Origin: an uncultured Candidatus Saccharibacteria bacterium
Lineage (GTDB): Bacteria > Patescibacteriota > Minisyncoccia > UBA9983
Length of the DNA: 64,000 nucleotides
Assembly (NCBI GenBank): GCA_964456855.1
Contig: CAYWCU010000001.1
Location: forward strand, 8,442 to 72,441
Direction: 5' to 3'
This document shows positions 12,441-57,891 of the stretch, one piece after another. The notes beneath the pieces are model-generated. The model ran no database searches. It saw nothing but the letters and a program-made list of their open reading frames with translations, and was not told the origin of the DNA. A program made the translations under genes and the position numbers. Position 1 is the first letter of the stretch, and each line of letters opens with the position of its first letter.

Positions 12441-14504
12441 CTAAAATTTGATTCTATCTCCCGGCTTGAGAACGCCCGACTTCAGAGGATTTTGCTCCCC
12501 ATTGGAAGTTTTGTCGGTTTTTTTTTCTTCCGTGGCACTAACGGAGTTGCTGTTTTTCATTTTTTCCTCAACGCCTTTTGCCTCCTCGTCCGAATCCGGC
12601 TTGCTTGGAAGCGGCTTCCCAAGAATGTCTTCCAAAGCGGAGCGTAAATCATTTACTCCAGGCTTCGCCTTTTTTTCATCTTGAAGGTCTTTAAGACTGA
12701 TTTTAGCGGGAGCGGAAACTGGAGACGGAACGGGTGTTTTCGCGAGGGTATCTTCGCGCGAGCGAGTTGATGGCTCCCAAACTTTCTTCTCTTCTCTTTG
12801 TCCTGCCACCCGTTCCGCGCGCTGACGAGTTGACGGCTCACGGACTTCCCCCTCTTCTCTCTGCTTCGCTGGTCGTCCCGCAGATTGCTCTACGCGTGGC
12901 GATGGTTTCCGCCACTTGCCGTCCACTCGTTCAAGGCGTCCCGAAGGTTTATTTCGTCCTCCGACAGTAAAAGAAGGTGTCTCGCGAACCGCGGGTGGCT
13001 TCTCTTGCTTTGAGATTTCAGACGCTGCGTCCCGATGGGCTTTGCAAAAAATCGGTCGCTTTTCATCCGGCTTGAACGGAACATACGTCTTTTTCTGGCA
13101 GACGGAACAAAAAGCTTCATACAGCTGCGGTTGCTGGGGTTTATCCTCGCTTTCTTCCCGAGAAGTTTGAGAAGAATTCCCTTCCTTTTTTTCCTCACCT
13201 CGAGAAGACCTCTCGGGGATAAAATCATTGCTGTGCCATTTGATAATTTCCTCTTCAATGGTCGCTTTCTCAGTGGCGTATTTTCCGCGAGAACTTGTTA
13301 TGATTTCTTCCCTGTGGGACATTTCTGAAATTTTTATCGGAGGAAGCGTGGTAGCTGAAAAAGGTCTGGACGCCACTCCATCTATCATCAATTTCAAATA
13401 AATACTGGCAAAACCCAAATTAACAATGTCCTGCACGTAAAATTGCGGAGCGAATTCTTTTTCCAAAAACTCAGCATCCGTCGCGCCGACCCTGAAACTA
13501 ACCATGGTTCCAACATTGCCGAAAACGGCGTCATTGACTCTTTCGTCCATCTGGGCGATGTATTGGTGAGCAAGTATCAGGTTGAGTCGGTATTTTCTGG
13601 CCTCAGACAAAATGTCGGCGAAAGATTCACTCGCGAAGTTTTGGAATTCATCAACATAAAGATAAAAATCCTCGCGCCGCTCTTCCGGAACATCAACGCG
13701 ACTCATTGCCGACAAGTAAATCTTGGTAATGAGCATCTGCCCAATGAGCCGCGAATTTTCTTCGCCAATTCTTCCTTTGGAAAGATTCATTATTAAAATT
13801 TTCTTCTTATCCATAACTTCGCGAATGTCAAAAGCGGATTTCGGCTGCCCGATAATGTTTCTGATAAGCGGATTGGAAACGAACTGACCAACTTTATTCT
13901 GGATGGCGGCGGTCGCCTCGGTGGCAAACTTGTCAGTGTATTTGGCGAATTCATCCGTCCAAAACGCTTTAACCACCGGGTCGGTAATTTTTGAAACCAC
14001 CTCCTTTCGGTAATTTTTGTCGGCAAACATTCGGTTAATTCCAAGAAGGGTTGAATTGGGATATTCAAGCAATGCCAAAATGGCATTGCTCAAAATATAC
14101 TCCATCCTCGCGGACCAAGCATCAACCCAAATCTTTTTGAAAACCCCAAGAAGTCCGGCGGAAACAAGATGCCGCTGGGTAGGGTCAACATTTTCCATCA
14201 CATTGAACGCGATGGGCCAATCAATATCATGCGGAGCGAAATAGACAACATCCTCAACGCGCTCTTTTGGAATAAAATCAAGCATTTTCTCAGCAAATTC
14301 GCCGTGCGGATCAATGATGGCAATTCCTTCCCCATTCTCAATATCCTGAATGGCCATATTTTCCAAGAGGGTTGTTTTTCCCATTCCAGTCTTACCGATG
14401 ATGTACATATGCTTGCTACGGTCCCTTCTTTTAATACCAAAACGCCTCCGCTCGTTGCGAAAATTAGTCTCGGCAAAATAAGTGATATTGTTCTCGTCCA
14501 TCAT
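12441..14504 (-). CDS. VirD4/TraG/TraD-like type IV secretion coupling-protein-family P-loop ATPase with C-terminal low-complexity tail and zinc ribbon
   Basis: Walker A IIGKTGMGKTT. Walker B/DE box FYLYVDEFQNF. Coupling-protein-like LILAHQYIAQM. The C-terminal 250 aa are K/E/R/P-rich with a 22-aa tandem repeat and a CSVCQK-x17-CKAH zinc ribbon. Confidence 0.6.
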   Translation of the reverse strand: MMDENNITYFAETNFRNERRRFGIKRRDRSKHMYIIGKTGMGKTTLLENMAIQDIENGEGIAIIDPHGEFAEKMLDFIPKERVEDVVYFAPHDIDWPIAFNVMENVDPTQRHLVSAGLLGVFKKIWVDAWSARMEYILSNAILALLEYPNSTLLGINRMFADKNYRKEVVSKITDPVVKAFWTDEFAKYTDKFATEATAAIQNKVGQFVSNPLIRNIIGQPKSAFDIREVMDKKKILIMNLSKGRIGEENSRLIGQMLITKIYLSAMSRVDVPEERREDFYLYVDEFQNFASESFADILSEARKYRLNLILAHQYIAQMDERVNDAVFGNVGTMVSFRVGATDAEFLEKEFAPQFYVQDIVNLGFASIYLKLMIDGVASRPFSATTLPPIKISEMSHREEIITSSRGKYATEKATIEEEIIKWHSNDFIPERSSRGEEKKEGNSSQTSREESEDKPQQPQLYEAFCSVCQKKTYVPFKPDEKRPIFCKAHRDAASEISKQEKPPAVRETPSFTVGGRNKPSGRLERVDGKWRKPSPRVEQSAGRPAKQREEGEVREPSTRQRAERVAGQREEKKVWEPSTRSREDTLAKTPVPSPVSAPAKISLKDLQDEKKAKPGVNDLRSALEDILGKPLPSKPDSDEEAKGVEEKMKNSNSVSATEEKKTDKTSNGEQNPLKSGVLKPGDRIKF

Positions 14505-23755: not shown

Positions 23756-24144
23756 ACAATAAAGAAGATTATTTTGAAAAATTGGTTGATGAAGCCATTT
23801 TGGCGTTGCCGGAAAAAATAAAGAAAGCGATGGATAATGTGGCTTTTGTGGTTGAGGAGGAGGCGCGGTGGAAAAAGGCCGGAGAAATGGGGATTAAAAA
23901 GAATGAAGTGTTAATCGGATTATACGAGGGTATTCCGAAAATTAAGCGGGATGACGGATATTTTGGGGTGTTGCCGGACAAGATTACCATTTTTAAAAAA
24001 CCGATAGAGAAATTAAGTGGCGGAAGCGGAGAAAAATTGAAAAAACTTGTCAACGAAACTGTGTGGCATGAAGTCGGACACCACCTGGGGCTTGATGACG
24101 CGGAGATTAAAATTCTTGAAGCAAAAAGGCGGAGAAGGGGTTGA
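23752..24144 (+). CDS. minimal zincin-like metallopeptidase family protein (HEVGHHLG)
   Basis: HExxH at the C-terminus with a following D; ATGA overlap with the upstream gene. Confidence 0.55.
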   Translation: MNNKEDYFEKLVDEAILALPEKIKKAMDNVAFVVEEEARWKKAGEMGIKKNEVLIGLYEGIPKIKRDDGYFGVLPDKITIFKKPIEKLSGGSGEKLKKLVNETVWHEVGHHLGLDDAEIKILEAKRRRRG

Positions 24145-24224
24145 GGGAAATTCGTAAAAACAAAACCAATACCGAACTTTCGCGCCGGCTTTCTTTAAAA
24201 CTCCTGCGGGGGTAAAATAAACAA

Positions 24225-24551
24225 ATGAAACGAGAAATAATCACATTGTCGGGAAACACGAGATTCAGAGATCGATTTAAGGAAGTGGAAAGAAAACTGA
24301 CATTGGAAGGCAAAATCGTCCTCCCGCCGGCAATATACGGCAAAAGCGAAGGGATTGAACACTCCCCCACCACAATCAAACTTCTATACGAATTGCATCT
24401 CGCCAAAATAGACATTTCCGACGGCATTTTCGTGATTGATGTTGGCGGATACATAGGCGATTCCACCCGGAAAGAAATAAAATACGCGAAAAACAAAAGG
24501 AAATTCGTAAGATACTATTCAAGAGATTTTAAAGACACGAAAATGAACTAA
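24225..24551 (+). CDS. hypothetical protein (108 aa), possible Rossmann-like nucleoside 2-deoxyribosyltransferase-like fold
   Basis: ORF; IFVIDVGGYIGDSTRKEI is weakly suggestive only. Confidence 0.35.
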   Translation: MKREIITLSGNTRFRDRFKEVERKLTLEGKIVLPPAIYGKSEGIEHSPTTIKLLYELHLAKIDISDGIFVIDVGGYIGDSTRKEIKYAKNKRKFVRYYSRDFKDTKMN

Positions 24552-24605
24552 CACCCCTAAAACCTGTTATCGCGACAAAACAAAAATACCGAACATGCCA
24601 ATTCT

Positions 24606-24866
24606 ATGAAAAACATCTGTGTTTACATATTAAAGTGCGGTGACGGCACGCTTTACACCGGTTCAACCGTGGATTTGGCGAAACGGCTTCGGGAGCATAA
24701 TGAGCTGAAAAGCGGGGCGAAATACACAAAGGCGCGCCGCCCGGTGGCTCTCGCGTATCAAGAAAAATGCAAAACACTCGCGCTCGCCCGCGAACGCGAA
24801 GCGGAAATCAAACGAATGACCAGAAGCGAAAAACTCGCCCTCGTGAAAAAGCCCAAAAAGCCATAA
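24606..24866 (+). CDS. GIY-YIG nuclease-family protein (short standalone form, 86 aa)
   Basis: [27 protein letters not shown]...[10 protein letters not shown] matches the GIY-YIG core. Confidence 0.75.
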
Positions 24867-24935
24867 AATAAAAGGAAAAGATGGGCTTCCCTATCGGCGG
24901 AAGCCCTTGAATCACGCTGGAAAAAATCCTTTAAA
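24810..24935 (+). repeat. repeat copy R1 (3-prime end of GIY-YIG gene + downstream hairpin)
   Basis: Core aaacgaatgaccagaagcgaaaaactcgcNctcgtgaaaaa is shared with R2 and R3; the downstream segment ...gcttccctatcggcggaagcc...tgaatcNcgctgg is shared with R3. Confidence 0.7.
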
Positions 24936-24992
24936 TATGGGATAGTTAAAATATCAAAGGCAAAGACCGAAAAAGGATTTTGCAGAATAATT

Positions 24993-25703
24993 ATGGATAT
25001 TCCTCAAGACATTCTTAATAAATTTATAGTAAGAGAAGATTATTTGGAGTGGGTAAATAAAGAAACGTCCATTATCGCGTACTTGGATTTGACTAATATG
25101 TTCCACTGGCAAGATGTTTTGGGGTGGAAATTTCGCATAGAAGATTTAGCCGAGCAACTTTTTAGTTTTTCAAACATTAAGGAAATTAAAGTGTATTATG
25201 GCTTGAACGAAAGAGATATAAGGAACTCCGAGGCCTTTCATGCTCGCATAAGAAAAACAGGGGCAATTTTAAGAAAAAAGCCCATGAAATTTATTAAAAA
25301 AAACATTAATGAAGCCATGTTTTTCCAACGCCGCACAATGACATTATTTGACGGAGAGCAGTACATTAAAGAAAAAATTAATGAACTGATACAAGCGCTT
25401 AATGAGTCTGGAATAATCATTGAAGAGCCTAAATGTAATTTTGATGTTGAAATGGCAATGGATATGATTGATGATACAGAAAAAATGACAGCAGTGATGC
25501 TTTTTTCCGGAGATTCAGATTTAAAAGAACCCTTAGAGAGATTAAAGATAAAAGGAAAGAATATTGGTGTGGTGGGGGTGCGCGGAAAAGTGGCGGGAGA
25601 ATTGCACGAAATTAAGAACAAATATATTGATTTTGGTAAGTTTTATACAGGGAAAAGGGTCTATACAAAAAGCGAAAATCCCGCTTTGGGCGGGACCGCG
25701 TGA
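24993..25703 (+). CDS. NYN/LabA-like (PIN-related) nuclease-domain protein
   Basis: AYLDLTNMF...CNFDVEMAMDMIDD...AVMLFSGDSDLKEPLERLKIKGKNIGVVG, typical of NYN/LabA. Confidence 0.65.
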   Translation: MDIPQDILNKFIVREDYLEWVNKETSIIAYLDLTNMFHWQDVLGWKFRIEDLAEQLFSFSNIKEIKVYYGLNERDIRNSEAFHARIRKTGAILRKKPMKFIKKNINEAMFFQRRTMTLFDGEQYIKEKINELIQALNESGIIIEEPKCNFDVEMAMDMIDDTEKMTAVMLFSGDSDLKEPLERLKIKGKNIGVVGVRGKVAGELHEIKNKYIDFGKFYTGKRVYTKSENPALGGTA

Positions 25704-25725
25704 TTAGTAGGATTGCTCCTACGCC

Positions 25726-25835
25726 ATCAATATAGCATACCAAGTTGCTAGTATCAAGAGAATTGTGGATAAGTGAAAACGAATGACCAGAAGCGAAAAA
25801 CTCGCACTCGTGAAAAAAAACAAAAAGGCCGTTGG
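25726..25835 (+). repeat. repeat copy R2
   Basis: tcaatatagcatac...gtggataagtgaaaacgaatgaccagaagcgaaaaactcgcactcgtgaaaaaa; an in-frame TGA lies just before the shared core. Confidence 0.7.
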
Positions 25836-25866
25836 AAATTAAAGGTTTTGAGTATAACATAAGAAA

Positions 25867-26268
25867 ATGAAAAAGGATTATTTAGAATGGCATAAGAAAA
25901 AAGAGAAAATTGACTGTAAAAATAAGCATATTTTTTTTCATGAACGAGAAGTTTGGTGGTGTTCTCTTGGTGTGAATGTCGGTTATGAGCAAGACGGAAG
26001 AGGAGACAATTTTTCCCGCCCCGTGGTTATATTGAAAAAATTTAATCTTGATATTTGTTTGGTTGTTCCGCTTACGACAAGCAAGAAAACGGGAAAGTAT
26101 TATTTTTCAATTGGAGATGTTGAGGGGAAAAACGCGTCGGCTGTATTGTCTCAGATAAGACTTATTGACCAGAAAAGGTTTTTTAAGAAAGTGGAGATGA
26201 TTGATGAAGAGATTTTTGATTGCTTAATTGACGCTGTTGTTAGTGTTAATTTTAAAAAAGGGGCTTAA
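25867..26268 (+). CDS. PemK/MazF-family toxin-like protein (no adjacent antitoxin ORF seen)
   Basis: REVWWCSLGVNVGYEQDG...RPVVILKK...CLVVPLTTS...SAVLSQIRLID matches the MazF/PemK fold pattern. Confidence 0.65.
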   Translation: MKKDYLEWHKKKEKIDCKNKHIFFHEREVWWCSLGVNVGYEQDGRGDNFSRPVVILKKFNLDICLVVPLTTSKKTGKYYFSIGDVEGKNASAVLSQIRLIDQKRFFKKVEMIDEEIFDCLIDAVVSVNFKKGA

Positions 26269-26276
26269 AACAGTTT

Positions 26277-26302
26277 GCCCCCGCTCCTTGCGGAGCGGGG
26301 GC
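26277..26302 (+). terminator. GC-rich hairpin (gcccccgctcc-ttgc-ggagcgggggc)
   Basis: Perfect 11-bp stem immediately after the toxin gene stop. Confidence 0.55.
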
Positions 26303-26350
26303 GAGGCCGAGGCCGTTTGTATGTTCATATTATCAAATCCAACCCAAAAG

Positions 26351-26500
26351 TCAATAGAGCATATCAACAGGGTGTGGATAAGTGAAAACGAATGACCAGA
26401 AGCGAAAAACTCGCGTTCGTGAAAAAGGCCGTTAGGTAAGAAGGAAAGGACGAGCTTCTTTATCGGCGGAAGCCGGTGAATCGCGCTGGGAAAACCCCAT
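26351..26500 (+). repeat. repeat copy R3
   Basis: tcaatagagcatat...gtggataagtgaaaacgaatgaccagaagcgaaaaactcgcgttcgtgaaaaaggccgtt...agcttctttatcggcggaagccggtgaatcgcgctggg. Confidence 0.7.
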
Positions 26501-26622
26501 AAAATATGATATATTTAGGGAAATTATGGAAAAAGACGGGAAAACAAACCCGGCCTCGCGACAAGCGCAAAAATTAGCTAACGCTATCAGTGTATCAACC
26601 GATAAGCTTTTGAAATAGAAAT

Positions 26623-27786
26623 ATGGCAAACAAAAATCTTACAAATGCAAAACGGGCAAAGAACGATGAGTTTTATACCCAGTTCGGCGATATCCAAAAA
26701 GAGATTGAGGCGTATTTGGAATACGATCCCGATGTATTTCGGGGCAAGGTGGTGTATTGTAATTGTGATGATCCGTTTGAGAGCAACTTCTTTCGCTATT
26801 TCGTACTCAATTTCAACAAGCTTGGATTGAAACAGCTTATCACCACCAGCTATAAACCTTCACCTATAGCCAACACGCAACTGGGATTGTTTGGCGATGA
26901 CAAGACCCTTGCGAAATCAAAAGGCCGTCCTAAGGTAAATGCTAACAAATTTATTATCAACGAAGTGGGTGATATGGATGGCGACGGCGAGTTCAATTTG
27001 AAAGATGTTGCCATACAGTTAAGGGCAAATAAACACAACGAATGGGAGCCCCTAGAAAATAATGGCGATTTCCGTAGTGATGAATGTATAAATCTACTTA
27101 AACAATCCGATATCGTGGTAACCAATCCGCCGTTCAGCTTATTCCGAGAATATGTAAAACAACTTATGGAGTATAAGAAAAAATTTGTGATCATCGGAAA
27201 TATGAATGCGATCACTTATAAAGAAATATTTCCTTTAATTAAAGACAATAAAATATGGCTTGGGGCTGGTAAAAACGATGGACGAAATGTGTGGTATCAA
27301 GTTCCTAATAATTACGAAAATTTTCACAAAGAGGAAAATGGCAAGAAATACGCATTTGTTGCGGGAACAATCTGGTTTACCAATCTTGATCACGGACGAC
27401 GCCATCAACCGTTGCCACTAATGACTAAAGCAGAAGTGATTAAATTTGGTACAAAAAAACCGTTCGAAAAATATGACAACTATAATGCAATCGAGGTATC
27501 ATTCGTTAAATACATTCCAAGTGACTACAAAGGTGTGATGGGTGTGCCAATCAGTTTTCTTGGTAAATATTCCCCCGATCAATTTAAAATTGTTGGAATG
27601 TGTGAAAATGAAGATTTGTATAAATTAAAAACAAAAGTTTATACAACGGCGGAGTGTAAGCAGGCATATTTAGATAAATTTGGCAAAAACGGAACTTATG
27701 ATTTGAACGCAAGTGGGGTGGTTATTCGAAACGGTTTATTGGAAAAAGTTTACCAAAGGATACTTATTAAACATAAGAAAAAATAA
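26623..27786 (+). CDS. EcoRI-methylase-family N6-adenine DNA methyltransferase
   Basis: N-terminus [14 protein letters not shown]...VVYCNCDDP and catalytic VTNPPFSL (NPPF), the hallmark pattern of the M.EcoRI/M.RsrI family. Confidence 0.7.
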
Positions 27787-27787
27787 T

Positions 27788-28954
27788 ATGAAAACAAACT
27801 TAAAAACTACCATTACCGTTAAAGATATCTGCGAAGGGTTTGTCTATAATGAACTTGAAGGCAAGGGCCTGTTTGGCTTGTCTGGCACGCTTACTATTCA
27901 GCCGGAGTACCAACGAAACTATATCTATGCCTTAGACGGCGGTAAAAAAGAGGTCGCCGTCATTGAGTCATTGCTCAAAGGTTACCCGATAGGTTTGATT
28001 TATTTCAATAAAGTAAACGACAAGAATTTAGAGGTTTTGGACGGACAACAACGCATTACTAGCGTTGGGCGATTTGTTAATGGTAAGTTTGCAATCAAGG
28101 ATGAAAACGGAATGCAATATTTCAGTACTATGGCAGAAGACAAGAAGTCCAAGATTTTAAAAACAAAACTTCTCATTTACGAATGCGAAGGTACTGAAAG
28201 TCAGATTAAAGAATGGTTTAAGACAATCAACATTGCAGGTGTCCCACTTAAACCCCAAGAATTTCTCAACGCTATTTATTCCGGACCATTTGTAACACTC
28301 GCAAAGGAAGAGTTTAGCAATAGCCAAAACGCAAATACGCAAAAATGGAGCGCGTACATATCGGGTGTCGTTAATCGCCAAGATTTTCTGGAGCAAGCGC
28401 TTGATTGGGTAAGCAAGGGAAACATTGACGATTATATGAGCCGTCATCGCAAAGATACAAATATTAAAGAGCTAAAAAATTATTTCAACAGCGTAATTGA
28501 TTGGGTTTCTGGGGTGTTTATAGATGTTGAAAGTGAAATGCGTGGTCTTGAGTGGGGGCGAATGTATAAGGAATATCACAAAAACGCTTATGATCCAAAG
28601 AAAGTTTCAAGGGAAGTTCACAAACTTTACGCCGATTCATATATCAAAAACCGTAAAGGTGTTTTTGAGTATATTCTCGGCGGTTCAACTGATACGAAAT
28701 TACTAAATGTCAGAGTATTTGACGAGGCAACTAAAAAGTCGGTTTATGCAAAGCAGACAAAGAGCGCAAAAGCTGGTGGTAAATCAAATTGTTCGCATTG
28801 CGCAATGGGTCATGATGCTAACAAAGAAAAAATTTGGGATCTTTCTGAAATGGATGCAGACCATGTTAGTGCTTGGAGTAAAGGTGGCGCGACAGATATA
28901 AAAAATTGTGAGGTGTTGTGTAAGACGCATAATCGGGCGAAAGGAAATCGATAA
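27788..28954 (+). CDS. DUF262 (ParB/Srx-like, DGQQR) + C-terminal HNH nuclease protein, GmrSD-like architecture
   Basis: LDGQQRITS motif in the N-terminal domain. C-terminal CSHC...[12 protein letters not shown]...[15 protein letters not shown] is an HNH/His-Me finger. The ATG lies 1 nt after the methylase stop; the track ORF starts at an upstream GTG. Confidence 0.65.
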
Positions 28955-29009
28955 AAAATGTAAGATGTCATGCAAGAAGTGTAGTAGAAGGAAATTGGGG
29001 AATAAATTT

Positions 29010-30080
29010 ATGAAACAAGCAAATCAAAAATTAAAAGCAATTGATTTTTTCTGCTCAGGCGGAGGAATGAGTTTTGGTTTGCAACAAGCTGGAATAGATG
29101 TCATTGCTGGAATTGATTTTGATTCTGATTGTAAAGATACATACGAGGCAAATATAAAAGGAGCAGAATATATTCTTGCTGATGTTGAAGAATTAAATGC
29201 CGAGGATTTATCAAAAAAAATAGACATAAAAAAGAATGATGATGATCTTATTTTGGTTGGATGTAGTCCGTGCCAGTATTGGACAATTATTCGGACAAAT
29301 AAGAGTAAGTCTCAAAAATCAAAAAATTTGCTTCATGAATTTCATAGATTTGTTAAGTATTACAATCCTGGATATGTTGTTGTAGAAAATGTCCCGGGGA
29401 TTTTAAATAAACATAAAGAAAGCGGGCTAAATAAATTTGTAAAGGACTTAGAAAAGCAAGGGTATGCAGTTCGCTATGAAGTGGTGAATTTAAATGAGTA
29501 TGGAGTGCCAGAAACAAGAAAAAGATTTTCATTGATAGCTAATAGAGTAACTAAAGATGAATTATTTCCTAAAGCAAATAATTCTTGTCCAGTGGTCTCT
29601 GATTTTTTGGGCGAAAAAAACAGTTTTTATAAAATACCCGCTGGGCACAAGGATCCTACGGATTTAATGCATACAACAGCCAAATTAAGTAAAAAAAATA
29701 TAAAAAGGTTAAAATTGACACCTAAAAACGGTGGCACACGACAGGCATGGGCGGATACTGATCTACAAATTAATGCATATAAAAAGAAAAATTCCAATAT
29801 ATCATTCAGGGACACATATGGACGAATGTCTTGGGATAAACCAGCACCAACTATTACTACAAAATTTTTTAGCATATCAAACGGTAGATTTGCACATCCA
29901 AATGAAAATAGAGCAATTTCCATAAGAGAAGGAGCGACATTACAAACTTTTCCTAAAACATATAAATTTATCGGAGGTAGTATTGCTACAATCGCACGAA
30001 TGATTGGAAATGCTGTTCCTCCGCTTTTTGCTAAACAAATTGGAAAAACTATAATCAAAAATCATTATGACAAAAAATAA
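29010..30080 (+). CDS. DNA (cytosine-5)-methyltransferase
   Basis: Motif I FFCSGGGMSFG, motif IV GCSPCQYWT, motif VI ENVPGIL, motif X GNAVPP. An alternative start is at 28965. Confidence 0.85.
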   Translation: MKQANQKLKAIDFFCSGGGMSFGLQQAGIDVIAGIDFDSDCKDTYEANIKGAEYILADVEELNAEDLSKKIDIKKNDDDLILVGCSPCQYWTIIRTNKSKSQKSKNLLHEFHRFVKYYNPGYVVVENVPGILNKHKESGLNKFVKDLEKQGYAVRYEVVNLNEYGVPETRKRFSLIANRVTKDELFPKANNSCPVVSDFLGEKNSFYKIPAGHKDPTDLMHTTAKLSKKNIKRLKLTPKNGGTRQAWADTDLQINAYKKKNSNISFRDTYGRMSWDKPAPTITTKFFSISNGRFAHPNENRAISIREGATLQTFPKTYKFIGGSIATIARMIGNAVPPLFAKQIGKTIIKNHYDKK

Positions 30081-31725
30081 TAAAACAAAACTTCAGATGA
30101 CTTTTGACCCATTGGTTATAGATGACCTTGGTGCAAAACTTTATTCTACTTTACCGCCGATAATTTCTGAATTAATTGCAAATGGTTATGATGCTTGTGC
30201 AAAAAAAGTATTTATAGAGCTAACAGGGGCGGGTGAAGATAAAAAAATTATTATTACAGATGATGGTTTCGGTATGAGTTTCGATGAGATTGATGATAAA
30301 TATTTACGAATAGGTCGTAAAAGACGAGAAGTTGCCGATGAAAAAATTGAATGTGAAAGACTCCCAATTGGAAAAAAGGGGTTAGGTAAATTAGCTTTTT
30401 TTGGTATTGCAAAAAAAGCAGTTATAAAAACTGTAAACAATGGAGAAGAGATTATATTTGAAATGAATTGGGACAAAATTCAAGATACCCCAGAAGGGGA
30501 TGATTATGAGCCAGTTTTTAGCAGAAAAAAAACTACTGAAAATAATGGTACAGAGATTATTTTATCTGAGATAGACAGAAAATCTGATTTTAAAACAGAG
30601 AGTCTTAAAATTAGTATTTCAAACTATTTTATCTTTGATGAAGATTTTAAGGTTTTTATCAAAGATGATTCAATGGGAAACTTTGAGGAGATTGATAATG
30701 AAATTAGATACAAACAAGGTGACAGGGGGAAAGATTTTTCATGGTCGTTTCCAGAAGTTGTCAAAAAACTTGAATTGGAAAAAGAATTTCCGTTTGCCCT
30801 AGATATTAAGGGTAAAATTATTTTATTTAATTTACCAGTTAAAAATAAGCTAAGAGGTGTTACTTTATTTTCTAGAAAAAAATTAGTAAGTCTCCCAGAA
30901 TCATTTCCAGTTCAGGGATCGAGTCATTTCTATCAATATTTAACTGGTTGGCTAGAAATAGATTTTATAGATAATCTAAAGCCAGATGTTATTGCCACAA
31001 ATAGAAGTAGTCTTAATTGGAATGATGAAAATCTTGAACAATTACAATTATTTTTGGAAAAAATAATAAATTATATACACAGAGAATGGAGAGTTCTCAT
31101 AGAAAACAGAAAAGAGAAAAGAGTGAAAGAGAAATATGGCGTAGATATTCCAGTATGGAGAGAAACCAACAAAAATAATCCTACAATTGTTAAAAATATT
31201 GATAAACTTGCTAAAGTATTTAATGAACCAGAAAAAATTGGCGAAAGTGAGGCGATAGATGTTTTAGGAATTGTATATGGTCTTGCTCCAGAAAATGCCG
31301 ATTTTGTACTCTGGTCTGGATTACACCAAAAAATAACGGAAAATACTCTTATAAAAGAATCTTTTTTTGCTGGGAAATATTTAGCAGCATCACGTGAAGC
31401 GGTACAAATTTATAATGAAACTGTGCAAAGTGTGTCTGGTTACGATGAAGCCGATTATGCTTTAATGGAAAAATCATACGGAAAAGAAGGACATAAGAAA
31501 ATTTGGGTTACAAACAAGTCTAATGATAATGAGAAAAATATAGATGAAGGGCAAAAACTAATTTCACAAGGAATAATGGTTGGTTTTAAGAATCCTGGTG
31601 TTAGCCACACAAGTCTCACGAAAGGACTGCAAAATAATGACTTTTCTCCACGAAATTGTTTGGATATATTAAGTACAATATCTTATTTATTTGACAGACT
31701 AGAGAAACGAAAACAACCAAGATAG
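30067..31725 (+). CDS. GHKL-superfamily (MORC/MutL-like HATPase_c_3) ATPase, R-M-associated
   Basis: N-box ELIANGYDA and G1 box IIITDDGFGMS. Overlaps the Dcm stop by 14 nt. No nuclease motif recognised. Confidence 0.6.
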   Translation: MTKNNKTKLQMTFDPLVIDDLGAKLYSTLPPIISELIANGYDACAKKVFIELTGAGEDKKIIITDDGFGMSFDEIDDKYLRIGRKRREVADEKIECERLPIGKKGLGKLAFFGIAKKAVIKTVNNGEEIIFEMNWDKIQDTPEGDDYEPVFSRKKTTENNGTEIILSEIDRKSDFKTESLKISISNYFIFDEDFKVFIKDDSMGNFEEIDNEIRYKQGDRGKDFSWSFPEVVKKLELEKEFPFALDIKGKIILFNLPVKNKLRGVTLFSRKKLVSLPESFPVQGSSHFYQYLTGWLEIDFIDNLKPDVIATNRSSLNWNDENLEQLQLFLEKIINYIHREWRVLIENRKEKRVKEKYGVDIPVWRETNKNNPTIVKNIDKLAKVFNEPEKIGESEAIDVLGIVYGLAPENADFVLWSGLHQKITENTLIKESFFAGKYLAASREAVQIYNETVQSVSGYDEADYALMEKSYGKEGHKKIWVTNKSNDNEKNIDEGQKLISQGIMVGFKNPGVSHTSLTKGLQNNDFSPRNCLDILSTISYLFDRLEKRKQPR

Positions 31726-31726
31726 C

Positions 31727-32134
31727 ATGAATGATAAGCTAGTTTCAAAAATCATAGAAAGAGATCGTATTTTTGGAAAGTTGTGTTTTGAGGCACAGGA
31801 TTCTTATAAACAAGAAAATTATTTTTCTGCATTGGCTTGTTTATTTGTTTTAGCAGAGCAAATTATAAAATTTTCTGTTGATAGAGTTGATGGTAATTTT
31901 CATAAAGCAATTATAGAAGCAAGAGAAAAGAATTTAATTAATGACATAGAATTTCAATTTCTTAATTCTTTGAGAGAAGTAAGAAATAAAATATTTCATG
32001 AGAGTCATTATCCGACAGGTCTTGAAATTGAAGGCAAGTTTTGGTCATTTAGTGAGAACGAAACAAAAGAGTTAATTTATAGAGAATTTTCTCCAAAAGT
32101 ATTTAGATTAGTATTTAAGTTAGTTGCATTTTAA
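31727..32134 (+). CDS. hypothetical small helical protein translationally coupled to the GHKL ATPase
   Basis: The ATG lies 1 nt after the upstream TAG stop. Confidence 0.4.
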   Translation: MNDKLVSKIIERDRIFGKLCFEAQDSYKQENYFSALACLFVLAEQIIKFSVDRVDGNFHKAIIEAREKNLINDIEFQFLNSLREVRNKIFHESHYPTGLEIEGKFWSFSENETKELIYREFSPKVFRLVFKLVAF

Positions 32135-32194
32135 GAGAGCAACGCTTGCGTACACAAAACTTATCAATTATCAGTAAAACTTTAATAAAAATAT

Positions 32195-33478
32195 ATGAAC
32201 AAAATTATATGTCCGAATTGTAAAAAAGATTTTGAGATGGATGATGCCGGCTTTGCTGATATTTTAAAGCAAGTTAGAGATGAGGAATTTAACAAAGATC
32301 TAAAAGAACGGGAGCTGATATTCATTAAGGATAAAGAAAACGCTGTTAAGCTTGCCGAGGCTAATATCACAAAAACACTACAAGAAAATCTTGCGAAAAA
32401 AGACAAAGAATTGGCTGAACTGAAAGCTGAAAAAGAACTTGAACTTGTTGAGCTTTTGGCTAAGAAAGAATCTGAAATAGCTGATATGAAATCAAAAATG
32501 GATAGTGTAGAGATTGAGAAAAAACTCGCTGTAACTGAGGCGGTTAATTCTGTTGAAAAAGAGCGAGATGAACTGGCTGGTGAATTAAAAAGCAAAGATA
32601 CAGAGAAACAATTGCTTGAAACATCGTTAAAAGAAAAGTTTTCTGACGAACTTAAAATTAAAGACAATATCATTAAGATGAAAGACGAGGAAATTGCTCT
32701 TCGTAAAGATATGAAAATTAAACTCTCAACTAAAATGGTCGGGGAAACCTTAGAGCAGCATTGCGAAACCGAATTTAATAAACTTCGCGCCACTGGTTTC
32801 CAAGACGCGTATTTTGAAAAAGACAACGACGCAAAAACCGGTAGCAAGGGTGATTATATTTATCGCGAAACTGATAAGGTTGGAAATGAAATTATTTCTA
32901 TAATGTTTGAAATGAAAAATGAAGGCGATGAGACCGCTACCAAGAAAAAAAATGAAGACTTTTTACGCGAACTTGATAAAGACCGTAAAGAAAAGAAATG
33001 CGAGTATGCTGTCCTTGTTACGCTATTGGAAGCCGAAAATGAACTATACAATACTGGTATCGTTGATGTTTCTCATAAACATTCCAAAATGTATATAGTT
33101 CGCCCGCAATTTTTCATCCCCATAATAACTCTGTTGCGTAACGCATCAATGAACTCCCTTAAATATAAAGCCGAGCTTGCCTTGGTAAGAAATCAAAATA
33201 TTGATATTACAAACTTTGAAGATAATGTAAATAAATTTAAAGAAGGATTCGCAAAAAATTACGATTTGGCTAGTCGTAAATTCAAAAACGCCATTGAAGA
33301 AATAGACAAAACTATAAACCATCTCCAAAAAACTAAAGATGCGCTATTGTCGTCTGAAAATAACCTCCGGCTCGCTAAGAATAAAGCAGAAGATCTGACA
33401 ATTAAAAAACTAACGCGCGGGAATACTACAATGACAGCTAAATTTGAAGAAATTTCCAATCCCAATAAAACAACATAG
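32195..33478 (+). CDS. DUF2130-like protein (N-terminal zinc ribbon + long coiled coil)
   Basis: [32 protein letters not shown]... matches the characteristic DUF2130 start. Confidence 0.5.
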
Positions 33479-33482
33479 AAAA

Positions 33483-33776
33483 ATGAACTACATAATTTTA
33501 ATCATCGTTGGTATTGTTGGAATTGCGCTTGGGGCGTCTTTTGCGCGAAAACGGAAAAGTGGTTTGATTGCAAGGCAGGCAAGGAAAAAAACGGAGAGTA
33601 AGGAAAAGGTTTTGGAGTTTTTGCGGGAGAACGGGAAAATCAAAAATAACGATGTTGAGGGACTGGTTGGAGTTTCCAATGCCACGGCTGAGCGGTATTT
33701 GGACGAGCTGGAGAAAGAAGGAAAACTGACACAGTGTGGAAATATCGGACAAAATGTTTTTTATACGCTAAGGTAG
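33483..33776 (+). CDS. membrane-anchored winged-helix DNA-binding protein
   Basis: N-terminal TM helix, then VGVSNATAERYLDELEKEGKLTQCG, a wHTH of the kind found at Fic/RecG-like C-termini. Confidence 0.5.
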   Translation: MNYIILIIVGIVGIALGASFARKRKSGLIARQARKKTESKEKVLEFLRENGKIKNNDVEGLVGVSNATAERYLDELEKEGKLTQCGNIGQNVFYTLR

Positions 33777-33807
33777 CGATTAACTCAACGCCGTTGAGTT
33801 AATCGCT
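33775..33807. terminator. perfect 15-bp inverted repeat hairpin (agcgattaactcaac/gttgagttaatcgct)
   Basis: Overlaps the stop of the wHTH gene. Confidence 0.45.
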
Positions 33808-33904
33808 ATCAGATAAAAATAAATCGCAAAAGTGGCGGTATTTTGAAAAATAGAGGGCAGAAGCAACATTATGTTTTTTGTCAATTTTTTGGTATTATGT
33901 CTAT

Positions 33905-34921
33905 ATGAAATTTCCTCGCTCAAAAAAAGTCATTTTTTCAAACAATAAAGGCGGGGTTGGGAAAACTACCCTTGCTTTTAATTGCGCTGTTTCGTTTGCT
34001 CAAAAAGGATACAAAACCGTCTTGATAGACCTTGACCCGCAGTGCAATCTTAGCCGACTTGCCATGGGTGAAGATTATTACAGAAAACATCTTTTTTCTG
34101 AGAGTGAAAAAACCGTTGCCGATGTGTTGAAAGGAATTGTGCGTGGAGGGTCAGATATTGACCTGACTGCGCAGTTTTTGCCTGTCAATGCAAGCCCCAA
34201 TCTTTCTTTATTAAAAGGGGACATTAATCTTTCATTGTATGAAAGTCTTTTGATAACCGCATACGGTCAGGCCGCTTCCGGGCAACAGATAGGATATTTT
34301 CAGACAAGCGCGATAGATCGTTTTTTAAGAGAGAAAGGGTTAAGTGAAGAAATTGACATTTTTGTCATTGATACATCGCCGAGCCTCGGGCTTCTTAATC
34401 AAGTAATTTTACTCGGCGCGGATTATTTCATAGTGCCAGTTTTACCGGACGCTTTCAGTGTTCAAGGTATAGAAAATTTGGGAACAGTATATGAAAGATG
34501 GAAAATAAACTGGAAAAATAGCGCCAAGGCTCTTGCTGGAGACACAGAGACAAAATTTGTTTTACACGGAGACCCCCTTTTCGCAGGATATATAATTAAT
34601 TCATATAATGTATATGGTGAACAGCCAATATCTGATCATCGCGCTTGGATGAAAAAAATACCAAACAAAGTTAGAGAGTATCTCTCTGAAAAGCACTGCA
34701 GAAATGGACTAGTGGAGAGTAGTTGGAAAAACCCTTTGCAGATTGTGCAGGATTATGGAAGAATTCCCTCAAAATGCCAAGAATTGGGTGTCGCGATTTT
34801 TAACCTAAATCCTTCGCAAGTAGCGGATCATCACCAAGGCACTAAAGAAAATATTGAAAAATCAAAAGAAGAATTTAAAAGTCTTTCAGAAAATATTATA
34901 AATATCTTAAAGAGCTATTAG
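33905..34921 (+). CDS. ParA/MinD-family P-loop ATPase with C-terminal extension
   Basis: Deviant Walker A NNKGGVGKTT; the ATG at 33905 is within the longer track ORF. Confidence 0.75.
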   Translation: MKFPRSKKVIFSNNKGGVGKTTLAFNCAVSFAQKGYKTVLIDLDPQCNLSRLAMGEDYYRKHLFSESEKTVADVLKGIVRGGSDIDLTAQFLPVNASPNLSLLKGDINLSLYESLLITAYGQAASGQQIGYFQTSAIDRFLREKGLSEEIDIFVIDTSPSLGLLNQVILLGADYFIVPVLPDAFSVQGIENLGTVYERWKINWKNSAKALAGDTETKFVLHGDPLFAGYIINSYNVYGEQPISDHRAWMKKIPNKVREYLSEKHCRNGLVESSWKNPLQIVQDYGRIPSKCQELGVAIFNLNPSQVADHHQGTKENIEKSKEEFKSLSENIINILKSY

Positions 34922-35015
34922 AATTCAACTGTTTTTTTGGTTGCGGGGATGAAGTGTTTGTGGTATTGTTATTGCAATCAAAAGTCCTGCGGGGCTTTTT
35001 TTATGAATAAGCATT

Positions 35016-36497
35016 ATGTCAAAAGGAGAAACAATAGTTCGGTTTAATGATGTGTCTTTCGGATACAGCGCCAAGAAGCCCATTTTGGATGAGGTTAATT
35101 TTAATGTCCGCCGTGGCGCCAAAGTCGCGCTTATGGGGCAGAACGGCGCCGGGAAAAGCACTCTCTTTCACCTCATAACAAAAAGCATCCTCCCTGAGGA
35201 CGGCGCTATTCATCTTGCCCCCAACCTCTCTATCGCGATGGCGCGCCAGGTTATCCCTCGGGAAGACTTGAACCTCACCACGCGGGAATTTTTTGAAAAG
35301 TGTTTTAACGAAAAGGTGTATGACATAGATCCCAAAATAGACAAGGTTTTGGGGGCGGTAAATCTCTCCGCACCGAAAGAACGGCTTATCAAAGATTTTT
35401 CCGGAGGACAGCAGGCGCGAATCCTTTTGGCGTCCGCCTTGATACAAAATCCGGATTTGCTTCTGCTTGACGAGCCGACCAATAATCTTGACAAAGAGGG
35501 TATCGCCCACCTGACGAAGTTTTTGGTTGATTACAAAAAAACGGTTATTGTCATTTCCCATGACGCGGACTTTTTAAACGCCTTCACGCAGGGGGTGCTG
35601 TATCTGGATATTTTCACATTGAAGATGGAGCAATACACGGGAAACTACAAAGACGTGGTGAGAGAAATTTCCATCCGCGTGGAGAAAGAGATAAGAAAAA
35701 ACGCCCAATTTGAAAAACATATTCAAGAGAAAAAGGACAAGGCGAATTTTTTCGCCAACAAGGGAGGAAGAATGAGGGTCTTGGCGAAGCGGATGCGCGA
35801 AAGCGCCACGGAGGCGGAAGAGTCAAAGGTGGAGGTGCGGCGGGAAGACAAAACAATCCGGAAATTTATCATAGGCGTGAAAGAACACCATGTCGGAGAA
35901 ATCTTGCGTATTGATTCCCTCTCAATAATGAAAGGCGATAAAATCGTTGAGTGCGAGGCGCGCGTTTCATTGCTTAAAAACAGGCATCTGCTTTTAAGCG
36001 GACCGAACGGAATCGGAAAAACGACATTGCTGGAGCATTTGGCGCGTGGCGGCTCGGACGGAACGAAAATATCGGAGGGTGTGAGGGTGGGATATTATCG
36101 GCAGGACTTTTCAACGCTTGATTTCGGTAAAACGGTGTACGATACATTGGAATCGGTTATGGACAAGCCGGATGAACAGGATATGCGAAGCGTCGCGGCG
36201 GGATTTCTGATTGACGGCGACCTTATGTACGCGAAAGTGGGAAACCTGTCCGAGGGACAAAAAGGGCTTGTCGCGTTCGCCCAGCTCGCCTTGCTGCGTC
36301 CCAACCTTTTAATACTTGACGAACCCACCAACCACATAAATTTCCGCCACCTGCCCGTTATCGCGAAAGCGTTGGATCAATACGAAGGGGCGATGGTGCT
36401 TGTTTCCCATGTTCCGGAGTTTGTGAAAAAAATCCGCATTGACGACACGCTTGACCTTGATAAACTTGAACCGCTCAAAAAGGCGAAGGCGAAATAG
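35016..36497 (+). CDS. ABC-F family ATPase (tandem NBDs, no TMD)
   Basis: Two Walker A sites (GQNGAGKST, GPNGIGKTT) and two signature/Walker B pairs (LSGGQQ...LLLLDEPTNNLD, LSEGQKG...LLILDEPTNHIN). Confidence 0.8.
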   Translation: MSKGETIVRFNDVSFGYSAKKPILDEVNFNVRRGAKVALMGQNGAGKSTLFHLITKSILPEDGAIHLAPNLSIAMARQVIPREDLNLTTREFFEKCFNEKVYDIDPKIDKVLGAVNLSAPKERLIKDFSGGQQARILLASALIQNPDLLLLDEPTNNLDKEGIAHLTKFLVDYKKTVIVISHDADFLNAFTQGVLYLDIFTLKMEQYTGNYKDVVREISIRVEKEIRKNAQFEKHIQEKKDKANFFANKGGRMRVLAKRMRESATEAEESKVEVRREDKTIRKFIIGVKEHHVGEILRIDSLSIMKGDKIVECEARVSLLKNRHLLLSGPNGIGKTTLLEHLARGGSDGTKISEGVRVGYYRQDFSTLDFGKTVYDTLESVMDKPDEQDMRSVAAGFLIDGDLMYAKVGNLSEGQKGLVAFAQLALLRPNLLILDEPTNHINFRHLPVIAKALDQYEGAMVLVSHVPEFVKKIRIDDTLDLDKLEPLKKAKAK

Positions 36498-57724: not shown

Positions 57725-57891
57725 TTTTAATTTTATCCATCGCGGTCCGGAACTCGCGGCTCAAAACAATTTCGCGCCGCAATCCGATGACCGCAATGTT
57801 ATATGATTATTTATCGACCTTAATTTATAATAACACTTCTTTTATTATACCTTATTAAAAGCAAAAGCCTAAAGCGGAATGTGGATAAAAC

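Follow-up and report, generated by a model that had tools for sequence, protein, structure and literature searches.

Where genomic islands accrete in tandem at the 3' end of a conserved gene (Campbell-type insertion with duplication of the target) or within hotspots flanked by core genes, the conserved gene end recurs as direct repeats between the inserted units, the first copy remains intact, displaced copies are orphans, and relatives carry an empty site. The same features were found in a 64-kb stretch of DNA (the whole stretch analyzed, here called the window) from a metagenome assembly of an ultra-small bacterium of the Candidate Phyla Radiation (CPR; Patescibacteria). In the window, the 3' end of a gene annotated as encoding a GIY-YIG nuclease domain recurs twice downstream, once after a gene for a putative NYN-domain nuclease and once after a gene for a solo MazF/PemK-like toxin. 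This repeat structure is a variant of target duplication at a conserved gene 3' end within an integration hotspot. It differs from described tandem accretion in that the units are only 0.6 to 1.0 kb long, no integrase was found, the repeat resembles the remnant of whole gene copies, and no repeat is present at the far end of the 10-kb insert. With about even confidence, the two downstream copies were interpreted as relics of two extra, once complete GIY-YIG genes that were brought in with the toxin units by recombination within GIY-YIG and were later truncated.

Other described systems were also compared with the locus. Compared to integrase-borne islands, the island genes here encode methylases, nucleases, an ATPase, proteins with domains of unknown function (DUFs), and a ParA-like protein. 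Pfam scans of the 40 submitted window open reading frames (ORFs) located between 0.5 and 48.8 kb detected no integrase, recombinase, or transposase. The repeat brackets the NYN and MazF units, yet neither it nor its downstream flank is present where the 10-kb insert ends on the right. Integron arrays and clusters of attC sites lacking integron integrases (CALINs) share with the locus an alternation of gene and repeat, small one-gene cassettes, and toxin or defense cargo. In contrast, no IntI was found here (which a CALIN does not require), the repeats are derived from coding sequence, and each cassette has an RNA gene and a promoter of its own. A GTTAGGT motif follows the third repeat, but there is no complementary RYYYAAC box, and folding of the repeats with their upstream segments as single-stranded DNA on both strands produced no long, attC-type hairpin (z = -0.3 to -1.4) and no inverted repeats. 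An integron reading was rejected because IntI and an attC fold were lacking and the repeats were coding derived. GIY-YIG is a nuclease fold used by homing endonucleases. Unlike a free-standing GIY-YIG homing endonuclease, however, the protein here is a single 86-aa domain whose gene keeps a conserved place beside an ABC-F gene and is single copy in relatives.

Type I toxin-antitoxin systems with a convergent RNA overlapping the toxin 3' end include txpA/RatA and bsrG/SR4, and type I systems with nuclease toxins include SymE/SymR and RalR/RalA. The NYN and MazF units resemble such loci in having a short structured RNA with its own promoter and terminator, predicted in silico, that is convergent with the toxin gene and overlaps or abuts its 3' end. 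They differ in that the putative toxins are nucleases (NYN, 234 to 236 aa; MazF, ~133 aa) rather than small (<60 aa) hydrophobic peptides and in that a DnaA-box 9-mer flanks the RNA promoter. The toxin fold of type II MazEF/PemIK systems (PF02452) is shared by the MazF-like protein, but no MazE/PemI-type ORF lies upstream of its gene in the window or at five other CPR loci. Earlier work noted solo MazF genes and raised RNA antitoxins as a possibility for solo toxins (PMC2701414). In Escherichia coli, the antisense RNA aMEF modulates mazEF, acting alongside MazE and stimulating expression (PMC8749433). No description of the RNA families associated with CPR NYN and MazF genes was found in limited literature searches.

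The GIY-YIG gene and the repeat blocks derived from its 3' end (R, with the tail that follows it) and from its 3' flank (D) were located as follows.

24606-24866, + strand: intact GIY-YIG gene (86 aa, catalytic domain only; PF01541, E = 2e-15), the last 57 nt of which are R1 and tail 1
24810-24851, + strand: R1 (core, 24810-24838), encoding 14 residues, with tail 1 continuing to the stop codon at 24864-24866
24872-24948, strand unassigned: D1, the GIY-YIG 3' flank
25777-25842, + strand: R2 and tail 2, an orphan GIY-YIG 3' end with 21 codons open, preceded by an in-frame TGA
26386-26439, + strand: R3 and tail 3, a second orphan GIY-YIG 3' end (17 residues)
26441-26517, strand unassigned: D3, a copy of the GIY-YIG 3' flank

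A first-pass annotation of the window had reported that the 3' end of the GIY-YIG gene recurs twice downstream, and this was borne out. A 29-nt core, AAACGAATGACCAGAAGCGAAAAACTCGC, was found exactly at positions 24810, 25777, and 26386, all on the + strand; these were the only 3 sites in the 64 kb with up to 3 mismatches allowed, and 100 shuffles of the window gave 0 matches. The 42-nt R blocks (24810-24851, 25777-25818, and 26386-26427) were 93 to 95% identical (40/42, 40/42, and 39/42 in pairwise comparisons). Downstream sequence shared by copies 1 and 3, including a hairpin, was also recovered, with D1 and D3 identical at 61 of 77 nt (79%) and the hairpin GCTTCnnTATCGGCGGAAGCC located at 24885-24905 and 26454-26474. 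The ~45 nt said to be shared upstream of copies 2 and 3 (segments U2 and U3) held only in part: 13 nt, TGTGGATAAGTGA, were identical (box plus R, 52/55), the next 12 nt upstream were ~70% alike, and the match of 'tcaataNagcata' between U2 and U3 required a 13-nt gap (chance expectation, 0.38 per window). The roles of 'tcaataNagcata' and 'tcaata' also differ, lying in the -10 region of a predicted promoter for a small RNA of the NYN unit in U2 and in the -35 of the corresponding MazF-unit promoter in U3. What the first-pass annotation took for a shared upstream segment is thus mostly promoter and DnaA-box sequence of small-RNA genes. A derivation of U3 as a deleted copy of U2 was considered and dropped, since other MazF loci show 'GTCAAT' as the -35 of the MazF RNA and TATCAACA as the MazF module's own box. 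The two units, 967 and 609 nt in length, had nothing in common except R and the box.

Substitutions among the R copies followed the GIY-YIG reading frame. The copies differ at positions 30, 31, and 42 of 42 nt, which in this frame gives GCC/GCA/GCG (all Ala), CTC/CTC/TTC (Leu/Phe), and AAG/AAA/AAG (Lys), and the three tails are open in the same frame for 17 to 21 codons from the start of R, with mutual differences in the form of 9-nt indels. Because the changes are mostly synonymous, the R copies appear to have evolved as coding sequence. At the neutral distance of 21% between D1 and D3, coding sequence would be expected to change at ~5 to 7% of sites, or 2 to 3 changes per 42 nt, and 2 to 3 were observed. 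The contrast between conserved R and diverged flanks is therefore explained by R having been coding until recently and does not require an att core; the proposals that the exact 29-nt core had to be an att site or the product of gene conversion were dropped, as coding constraint at the D1/D3 distance suffices. Between species, the R segment (79 to 86% identity) evolves no slower than the rest of the GIY-YIG gene (80 to 83%), and since it is not specially conserved, the three alleles must stem from close relatives. In the +1 frame, the substitutions are nonsynonymous, and a peptide beginning in that frame at the GTG that follows the box was accordingly rejected.

GIY-YIG homologs numbered 231, mostly from Patescibacteria, and the position of the gene in the window matches that in the relatives L002, L012, and L147. 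No second copy of the gene tail was found at 46 other GIY-YIG loci with an examinable 3' end, where only terminator hairpins were present. A peptide-pattern search of all loci returned no orphan tails; the pattern needed residues upstream of R and missed R2 and R3 themselves, so this result carries little weight. A 22-nt part of R was absent from collections of genomes, metagenomes, and viral contigs scanned for exact matches, which do not include the source genome and its near relatives, and searches of viral contigs for GIY-YIG, NYN, and MazF found none. Similarity between R and the NYN 3' end (74 to 78% over 23 nt) was judged likely to be chance. Distant GIY-YIG genes (39% identity) in L040 (7784-7828 and ~8100) and L041 (2995-3028) are flanked by 34- to 45-nt inverted repeats that are 93 to 97% complementary.

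The locus between GIY-YIG and the downstream ABC-F gene is an insertion hotspot, as the two genes are ~10 kb apart in the window and adjacent in relatives. An empty site with a single GIY-YIG gene, which the first-pass annotation proposed seeking in related genomes, was found in L012, L147, L014, and L015, in which GIY-YIG is followed directly by the conserved promoter/leader and gene of ABC-F. The tails and spacers at these sites were diverged, and the junctions are not mappable to the base. The closest syntenic relative, L002 (~83% nucleotide identity), shares the left flank, GIY-YIG, and ABC-F with the window and carries 1.85 kb of unrelated genes between the last two. The right boundary of the insert was defined by the following features.

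34941-35015 of the window: ABC-F leader-like element, also at L002 9245-9327, L012 ~820-925, and L147 1502-1570 and in L014 and L015; L002 homology resumes at 34941
35016-36497, + strand: ABC-F gene (ribosomal-protection type), which directly follows GIY-YIG in the empty-site relatives

No copy of R or D was found at the right end of the ~10-kb insert, and no repeat from the left region was found again where the island ends on the right. The upstream slot of GIY-YIG varies as well: the window has a DUF4406 gene there, L002 has an unrelated 140-aa ORF, and L012 and L147, the nearest two of the empty-site relatives, have an NYN-type gene. The last of these is a different NYN (206 aa; L147, 527-1246; L012, ~17-499) located directly upstream of a full GIY-YIG gene, with a minus-strand promoter (TTGACT, 16 nt, TG-TAGTAT) and terminator of its own. 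At both loci, a TGTGGATAA or TGTGAATAA box lies 2 to 4 nt before the GIY-YIG ATG, and the orphans R2 and R3 of the window occupy the same place, with the box, GTGA, and then GIY-YIG sequence from codon 69. The three repeats were not seen without intervening genes in any relative, nor do they represent the ends of intact paralogs, three in number. In L006-L011, from a relative with 72% identity, the order is reversed, with ABC-F directly upstream of GIY-YIG, and a gene for an IS200-like Y1 transposase lies 3.6 kb away.

The gene calls of the first-pass annotation for GIY-YIG, NYN, and MazF/PemK were upheld by Pfam (PF01541, PF01936, and PF02452, respectively). The NYN unit consists of the following elements in addition to its box.

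24993-25703, + strand: NYN-domain nuclease gene (236 aa; PF01936, E = 5e-15)
25667-25722, - strand: predicted NYN antisense small RNA (~56 nt), with a 5' hairpin (25722-25707), UAAUCACGCGGU, and a terminator (25697-25677) plus U-run
25729-25757, - strand: NYN-RNA promoter, with -35 TTGATA (25757-25752), a 17-nt spacer, and TG-extended -10 TATATT (25734-25729)

The NYN gene belongs to a family with 70 to 82% identity across many CPR lineages, including Giovannoni-, Nealson-, Uhr-, Nomura-, Vogel-, Falkow-, Lipton-, and Wolfebacteria (loci compared, L056-L125). DNA homology to ~50 other genomes extends from the ATG to 20 to 75 nt past the stop codon. On the + strand, this 3' extension has a fixed order: a hairpin in the last codons (CCCGC...GCGGG), an invariant ACCGCGTGA, a second hairpin GTAGGAnnnnTCCTAC, AGTATAGCA (the complement of which, TGCTATACT, is a TG-extended -10), a spacer of ~17 nt, GTCAA (complement TTGAC, a -35), and the DnaA-box 9-mer. 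Read on the minus strand, the same sequence forms a canonical sigma-70 promoter that points into the 3' end of NYN, followed by a 5' hairpin, an unpaired UAAUCACGCGGU, and an intrinsic terminator, so that the predicted RNA of the window overlaps the last 37 nt of the NYN ORF. Its promoter, which makes up the left part of U2, was the top-ranked candidate in the region in a promoter/terminator scan (10/12 matches with TG), and the terminator (25697 to 25677) was also found in the scan.

Conservation of the NYN RNA was observed at the level of both promoter and fold. Across the 50-genome alignment, the -10 is kept as TGnTATAcT, and the -35 (GTCAA on the + strand) recurs downstream at those loci. 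In the predicted stems, 98.2% of alignment cells were paired and 8 of 12 pairs had changed on both sides, values reached by 0 of 500 shuffles, and slid controls were 26 to 50% paired. RNAalifold alone predicted the same fold. G.U pairs numbered 19 on the minus strand versus 3 on the plus strand, and the RNA was assigned to the minus strand on this basis. The window copy folded with z = -3.95 and was the single match in the window of the covariance model (99.7 bits); an Rfam scan of 24000-27000 at E ≤ 1 gave no match. The stretch of D1 at 24909-24920 holds AATCACGC, the 8-mer of which recurs as the unpaired segment of the NYN antisense RNA (25698-25705), and the D1 8-mer is thus complementary to the NYN mRNA around its stop codon; the D3 counterpart is AATCGCGC, and chance is a possible explanation. 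The D1 hairpin (24883-24906) reads as a minus-strand terminator (24906 to 24883; fold z = -2.0), and D1 may perhaps hold a third convergent small RNA. In D3, the hairpin is weakened (fold z = 0.0), and this block is probably the resident GIY-YIG flank.

The first-pass annotation proposed a search for the cassettes in other contexts, and both were found in such contexts. The flanks of NYN loci were not syntenic, with clusters of ≤3 among 42 genomes. In 16 of 20 genomes (L056-L102), the gene directly 3' of the NYN module and co-oriented with it belonged to a restriction-modification or toxin-antitoxin system or was another conflict gene, the genes including HsdS/M/R, ResIII, Type ISP, GmrSD, N6_N4 methylase, Phd, Fic, DUF3800, and Nmad3. 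The NYN module may thus mark the edge of defense islands in CPR genomes. Solo MazF occurred at five other CPR loci (L136, L140, L141, L144, and L145), again with differing upstream neighbors.

Elements of the MazF unit were predicted as follows.

25867-26268, + strand: solo MazF/PemK-like gene (133 aa; PF02452, E = 1.7e-10)
26267-26320, - strand: predicted convergent MazF small RNA (~54 nt), ACAAACGG-CCUC-GGCC, with an 11-bp hairpin (26302-26277) and U-run
26327-26354, - strand: MazF-RNA promoter, with -35 TTGACT (26354-26349), a 16-nt spacer, and TG-extended -10 TAATAT (26332-26327)

In agreement with the first-pass annotation, MazF has no upstream antitoxin ORF. The in-frame stop of R2 and the MazF ATG are separated by only 24 nt, and no ORF of ≥30 aa lies between R2 and the MazF start. 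The first-pass annotation proposed looking for a small antitoxin encoded in R2; the likely partner of MazF is instead the conserved convergent RNA predicted downstream of the gene. The RNA fold of R2 was not significant (z = +0.5), nor were the RNA folds of the U-R units (z = +0.5 and -0.6). The MazF RNA starts with ACAAACGGCCUCGGCC, its U-run ends at the MazF stop codon, its fold has z = -5.14, and both promoter and terminator were found by scan, the -35 being the 'tcaata' of U3. At the five other CPR loci, the promoter hexamers, the ACAAACGGCUUCGGCC segment, and the stem with compensatory changes were all kept, in a comparison comprising six loci only (the window and these five). A DnaA-like box was present upstream of the -35 at 4 of the 5.

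DnaA-type boxes lie between the RNA promoters and the orphan R copies.

25764-25772, - strand: perfect DnaA-box 9-mer TTATCCACA, 6 nt upstream of the NYN-RNA -35 and followed by GTGA and R2
26361-26381: degenerate box ATATCAACA (26361-26369, the usual position in MazF modules) and perfect DnaA box (26373-26381, - strand), followed by GTGA (26382-26385) and R3

A perfect TTATCCACA or TGTGGATAA was located 55 to 65 nt past the NYN stop codon at 25 of 48 distinct loci (15 forward and 10 reverse), with a one-mismatch box at 11 more; perfect boxes totaled 37 in the 299 kb of those loci. Altogether, a perfect or near-perfect DnaA box was found just upstream of the antisense-RNA -35 for three unrelated toxin genes and in either orientation, at NYN loci, in L145, in L012 and L147, and in the window. 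Its placement beside the -35 regardless of orientation suggests that a protein binds the box to regulate the RNA promoter. Another perfect DnaA box, the third in the window (57880-57888, - strand), is located in an AT-rich spacer between two minus-strand genes.

From these observations, the following route was proposed for the origin of R2 and R3. Each unit, located directly upstream of an extra GIY-YIG gene, would have combined one nuclease gene, for NYN or MazF, with a gene for a convergent antisense small RNA and with a DnaA-type box. A segment carrying toxin, small RNA, box, GIY-YIG, and flank, from foreign DNA or a sister strand, would have circularized and entered by a single crossover within GIY-YIG, that is, Campbell-type insertion by ordinary homologous recombination. 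Each such event would add one toxin unit and one GIY-YIG copy, with the upstream copy staying intact, and the order R1-D1, NYN-box-R2, MazF-box-R3-D3 would result. Tail 1 and D1 would be donor derived and tail 3 and D3 the resident flank; the 79% identity of D1 and D3 is explained if one is donor derived and the other resident. The redundant downstream copies would then have lost sequence between the start codon and codon 68 through a deletion at an AAA microhomology, leaving box-GTGA|AAACGA..., and the junction GTGAAAACGA is the product that would be expected from a deletion between the start (xTG AAA AAC) and ...ATC AAA CGA. The R copies would now be scars, the only likely activity of which is loss or exchange of the 967- and 609-nt units by R-R recombination. 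This route also accounts for the coding-type substitutions and the missing integrase.

The arrangement of toxin unit, box, and full GIY-YIG in L012 and L147, which we consider the decisive comparison, backs the relic interpretation, and the occurrence of NYN and MazF in unrelated contexts, as apparently autonomous units, is also consistent with it. The suggestion in the first-pass annotation of decayed GIY-YIG-associated units accordingly fits the locus better, given also the synonymous changes in R, than the site-specific insertion offered beside it. Several observations weigh against the relic interpretation. Both orphans share an identical truncation junction despite differing downstream, which would need either a single deletion that gene conversion then spread, giving identity over the 42 nt that run from the box to R position 29, or a recurrent microhomology deletion. 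The R copies resemble one another more than any sampled relative (common GACCAG and CTCGCnnTCGTG), so that the copies either originated locally or were donated by very close relatives. Neither a donor genome nor an intermediate with three complete copies nor a circular form was found, and the 22-mer of R was absent from the collections scanned. Among 80 loci with the 234-aa NYN family, none had GIY-YIG within 4 kb. Finally, the restriction-modification block beyond R3-D3, with no R at its far end, calls for a separate event.

Site-specific capture of cassettes was considered unlikely. Under this explanation, the R core would be an att-like site into which circular cassettes (R tail, gene, and U) were inserted by a recombinase encoded elsewhere, with R regenerated at each insertion. 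The gene-repeat-gene-repeat layout of small, single-gene units holds, the core is exact in three copies versus flanks that are ≤80% alike, and each tail provides an in-frame stop, as expected for elements targeting gene 3' ends. However, past coding constraint explains the conservation of R quantitatively, and the adjacency of box and GIY-YIG in L012 and L147 explains the U/R junction without an att site. In addition, the scanned ORFs include no integrase or recombinase, neither an attC-like fold nor inverted repeats were seen in the U-R units, no further R was found in the window or in the public collections scanned, and no tail duplications were present at the other GIY-YIG loci examined. 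The serial insertion proposed in the first-pass annotation thus stands insofar as NYN and MazF form accessory DNA that relatives lack at this site; a dedicated mechanism of site-specific insertion that duplicates the target was not supported, there being no integrase in the ORFs scanned, no attC fold, and no R at the right end of the insert. Somewhat less probable still was local tandem duplication, by which unequal crossing-over or slippage would have triplicated the segment from R to the box and the inner genes would later have been replaced, with MazF taking the place of NYN in unit 2 and the restriction-modification block doing so in unit 3. Copying of this segment would create the box/R junction automatically and make both junctions identical, and the three R copies are mutually closest, with D1/D3 and the tails similarly diverged. 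Two later gene replacements with boundaries inside the units would nevertheless be required, and units 2 and 3 hold no residual NYN or NYN RNA (the covariance model finds one copy). Furthermore, the 967- and 609-nt units share only R and the box and so are not homologous along their whole length, and an orphan R would be expected to drift as noncoding sequence, yet its changes are synonymous in the GIY-YIG frame.

Mobility driven by the GIY-YIG nuclease was rated very unlikely. The protein would cut near its own gene, repair would copy neighboring units, and the gene fragments would be a by-product; the use of the fold by homing endonucleases agrees with this, as do the variable DNA on both sides of the gene, with DUF4406, the 140-aa ORF, or the 206-aa NYN in the upstream slot, and the finding that three toxin types all adjoin GIY-YIG. 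The protein, however, is an 86-aa catalytic domain without a DNA-binding domain, and its gene keeps its place beside ABC-F in relatives, is single copy at the 46 other loci examined, and was found on no viral contigs. An assembly artifact, in which fragments of different strains were joined into a chimera because of the repeats, was given almost no credence. The DNA comes from a metagenome assembly, assemblies made with short k end at the repeat, and no independent contig covers 25794-26500, the exact MazF protein being absent from the contig index. Five Logan contigs from five sequencing runs were nonetheless 100% identical to the window, the leftmost from 18993, up to 25793, where all five break inside the repeat, as k=31 assemblies must. 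The runs are thus identical across GIY-YIG, D1, NYN, and U2 into R2, and this stretch is not an assembly artifact. The 42- to 55-nt repeat is also shorter than a normal read, and the copies differ, which argues against collapsed duplicates. The relic interpretation, at about even confidence, was the favored one.

Beyond D3, the remainder of the insert was annotated as follows.

26526-34921, + strand: rest of the inserted DNA, with genes for an EcoRI-like methylase, a GmrSD/HNH type II nuclease, a Dcm methylase, a HATPase_c_3/Hypoth_Ymh (HEPN-like) protein, DUF4145, DUF2130, and a ParA-like ATPase

Within it, 26623-31725 contains two type II restriction-modification pairs (EcoRI-like methylase with GmrSD_N/HNH and Dcm with HATPase_c_3/Hypoth_Ymh), with ORF ends overlapping at 27713-27786 and 28908-28954. 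Just before the ABC-F gene of the window, a conserved promoter-like TTGCG...TATTGT and a short hairpin with a U-run look like a leader or attenuator, elements that ABC-F resistance genes are known to have. A gene for a TrwB/TraG-like type IV coupling protein (12441-14504, - strand) lies ~10 kb from the locus.

NYN and MazF are probably toxin or defense nucleases. By analogy of architecture with type I systems with 3' overlap, the convergent RNAs would counter the NYN and MazF mRNAs. A broader picture, which we regard as doubtful, would be that Patescibacteria carry widespread one-protein nuclease toxins (234-aa NYN, 206-aa NYN, and solo MazF) under convergent RNAs with promoters flanked by DnaA boxes, as an undescribed class of type I-like toxin-antitoxin or defense modules with an antitoxin supply tied to DnaA or the replication state, and that these units travel with a GIY-YIG homology handle, which would give rise to integrase-free cassette arrays at defense hotspots. 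If the relic interpretation is correct, small genomes with few mobile-element enzymes can still stack toxin and defense genes, using a short conserved housekeeping gene (GIY-YIG) as a recombination anchor, with the relics recording the history. The analysis also exposed conserved antisense RNA genes beside NYN, in ~50 genomes across many CPR lineages, and beside solo MazF. If these RNAs are antitoxins, many of the "solo" toxins annotated in CPR genomes would be explained, and type I-like control would be extended to MazF and NYN nucleases.

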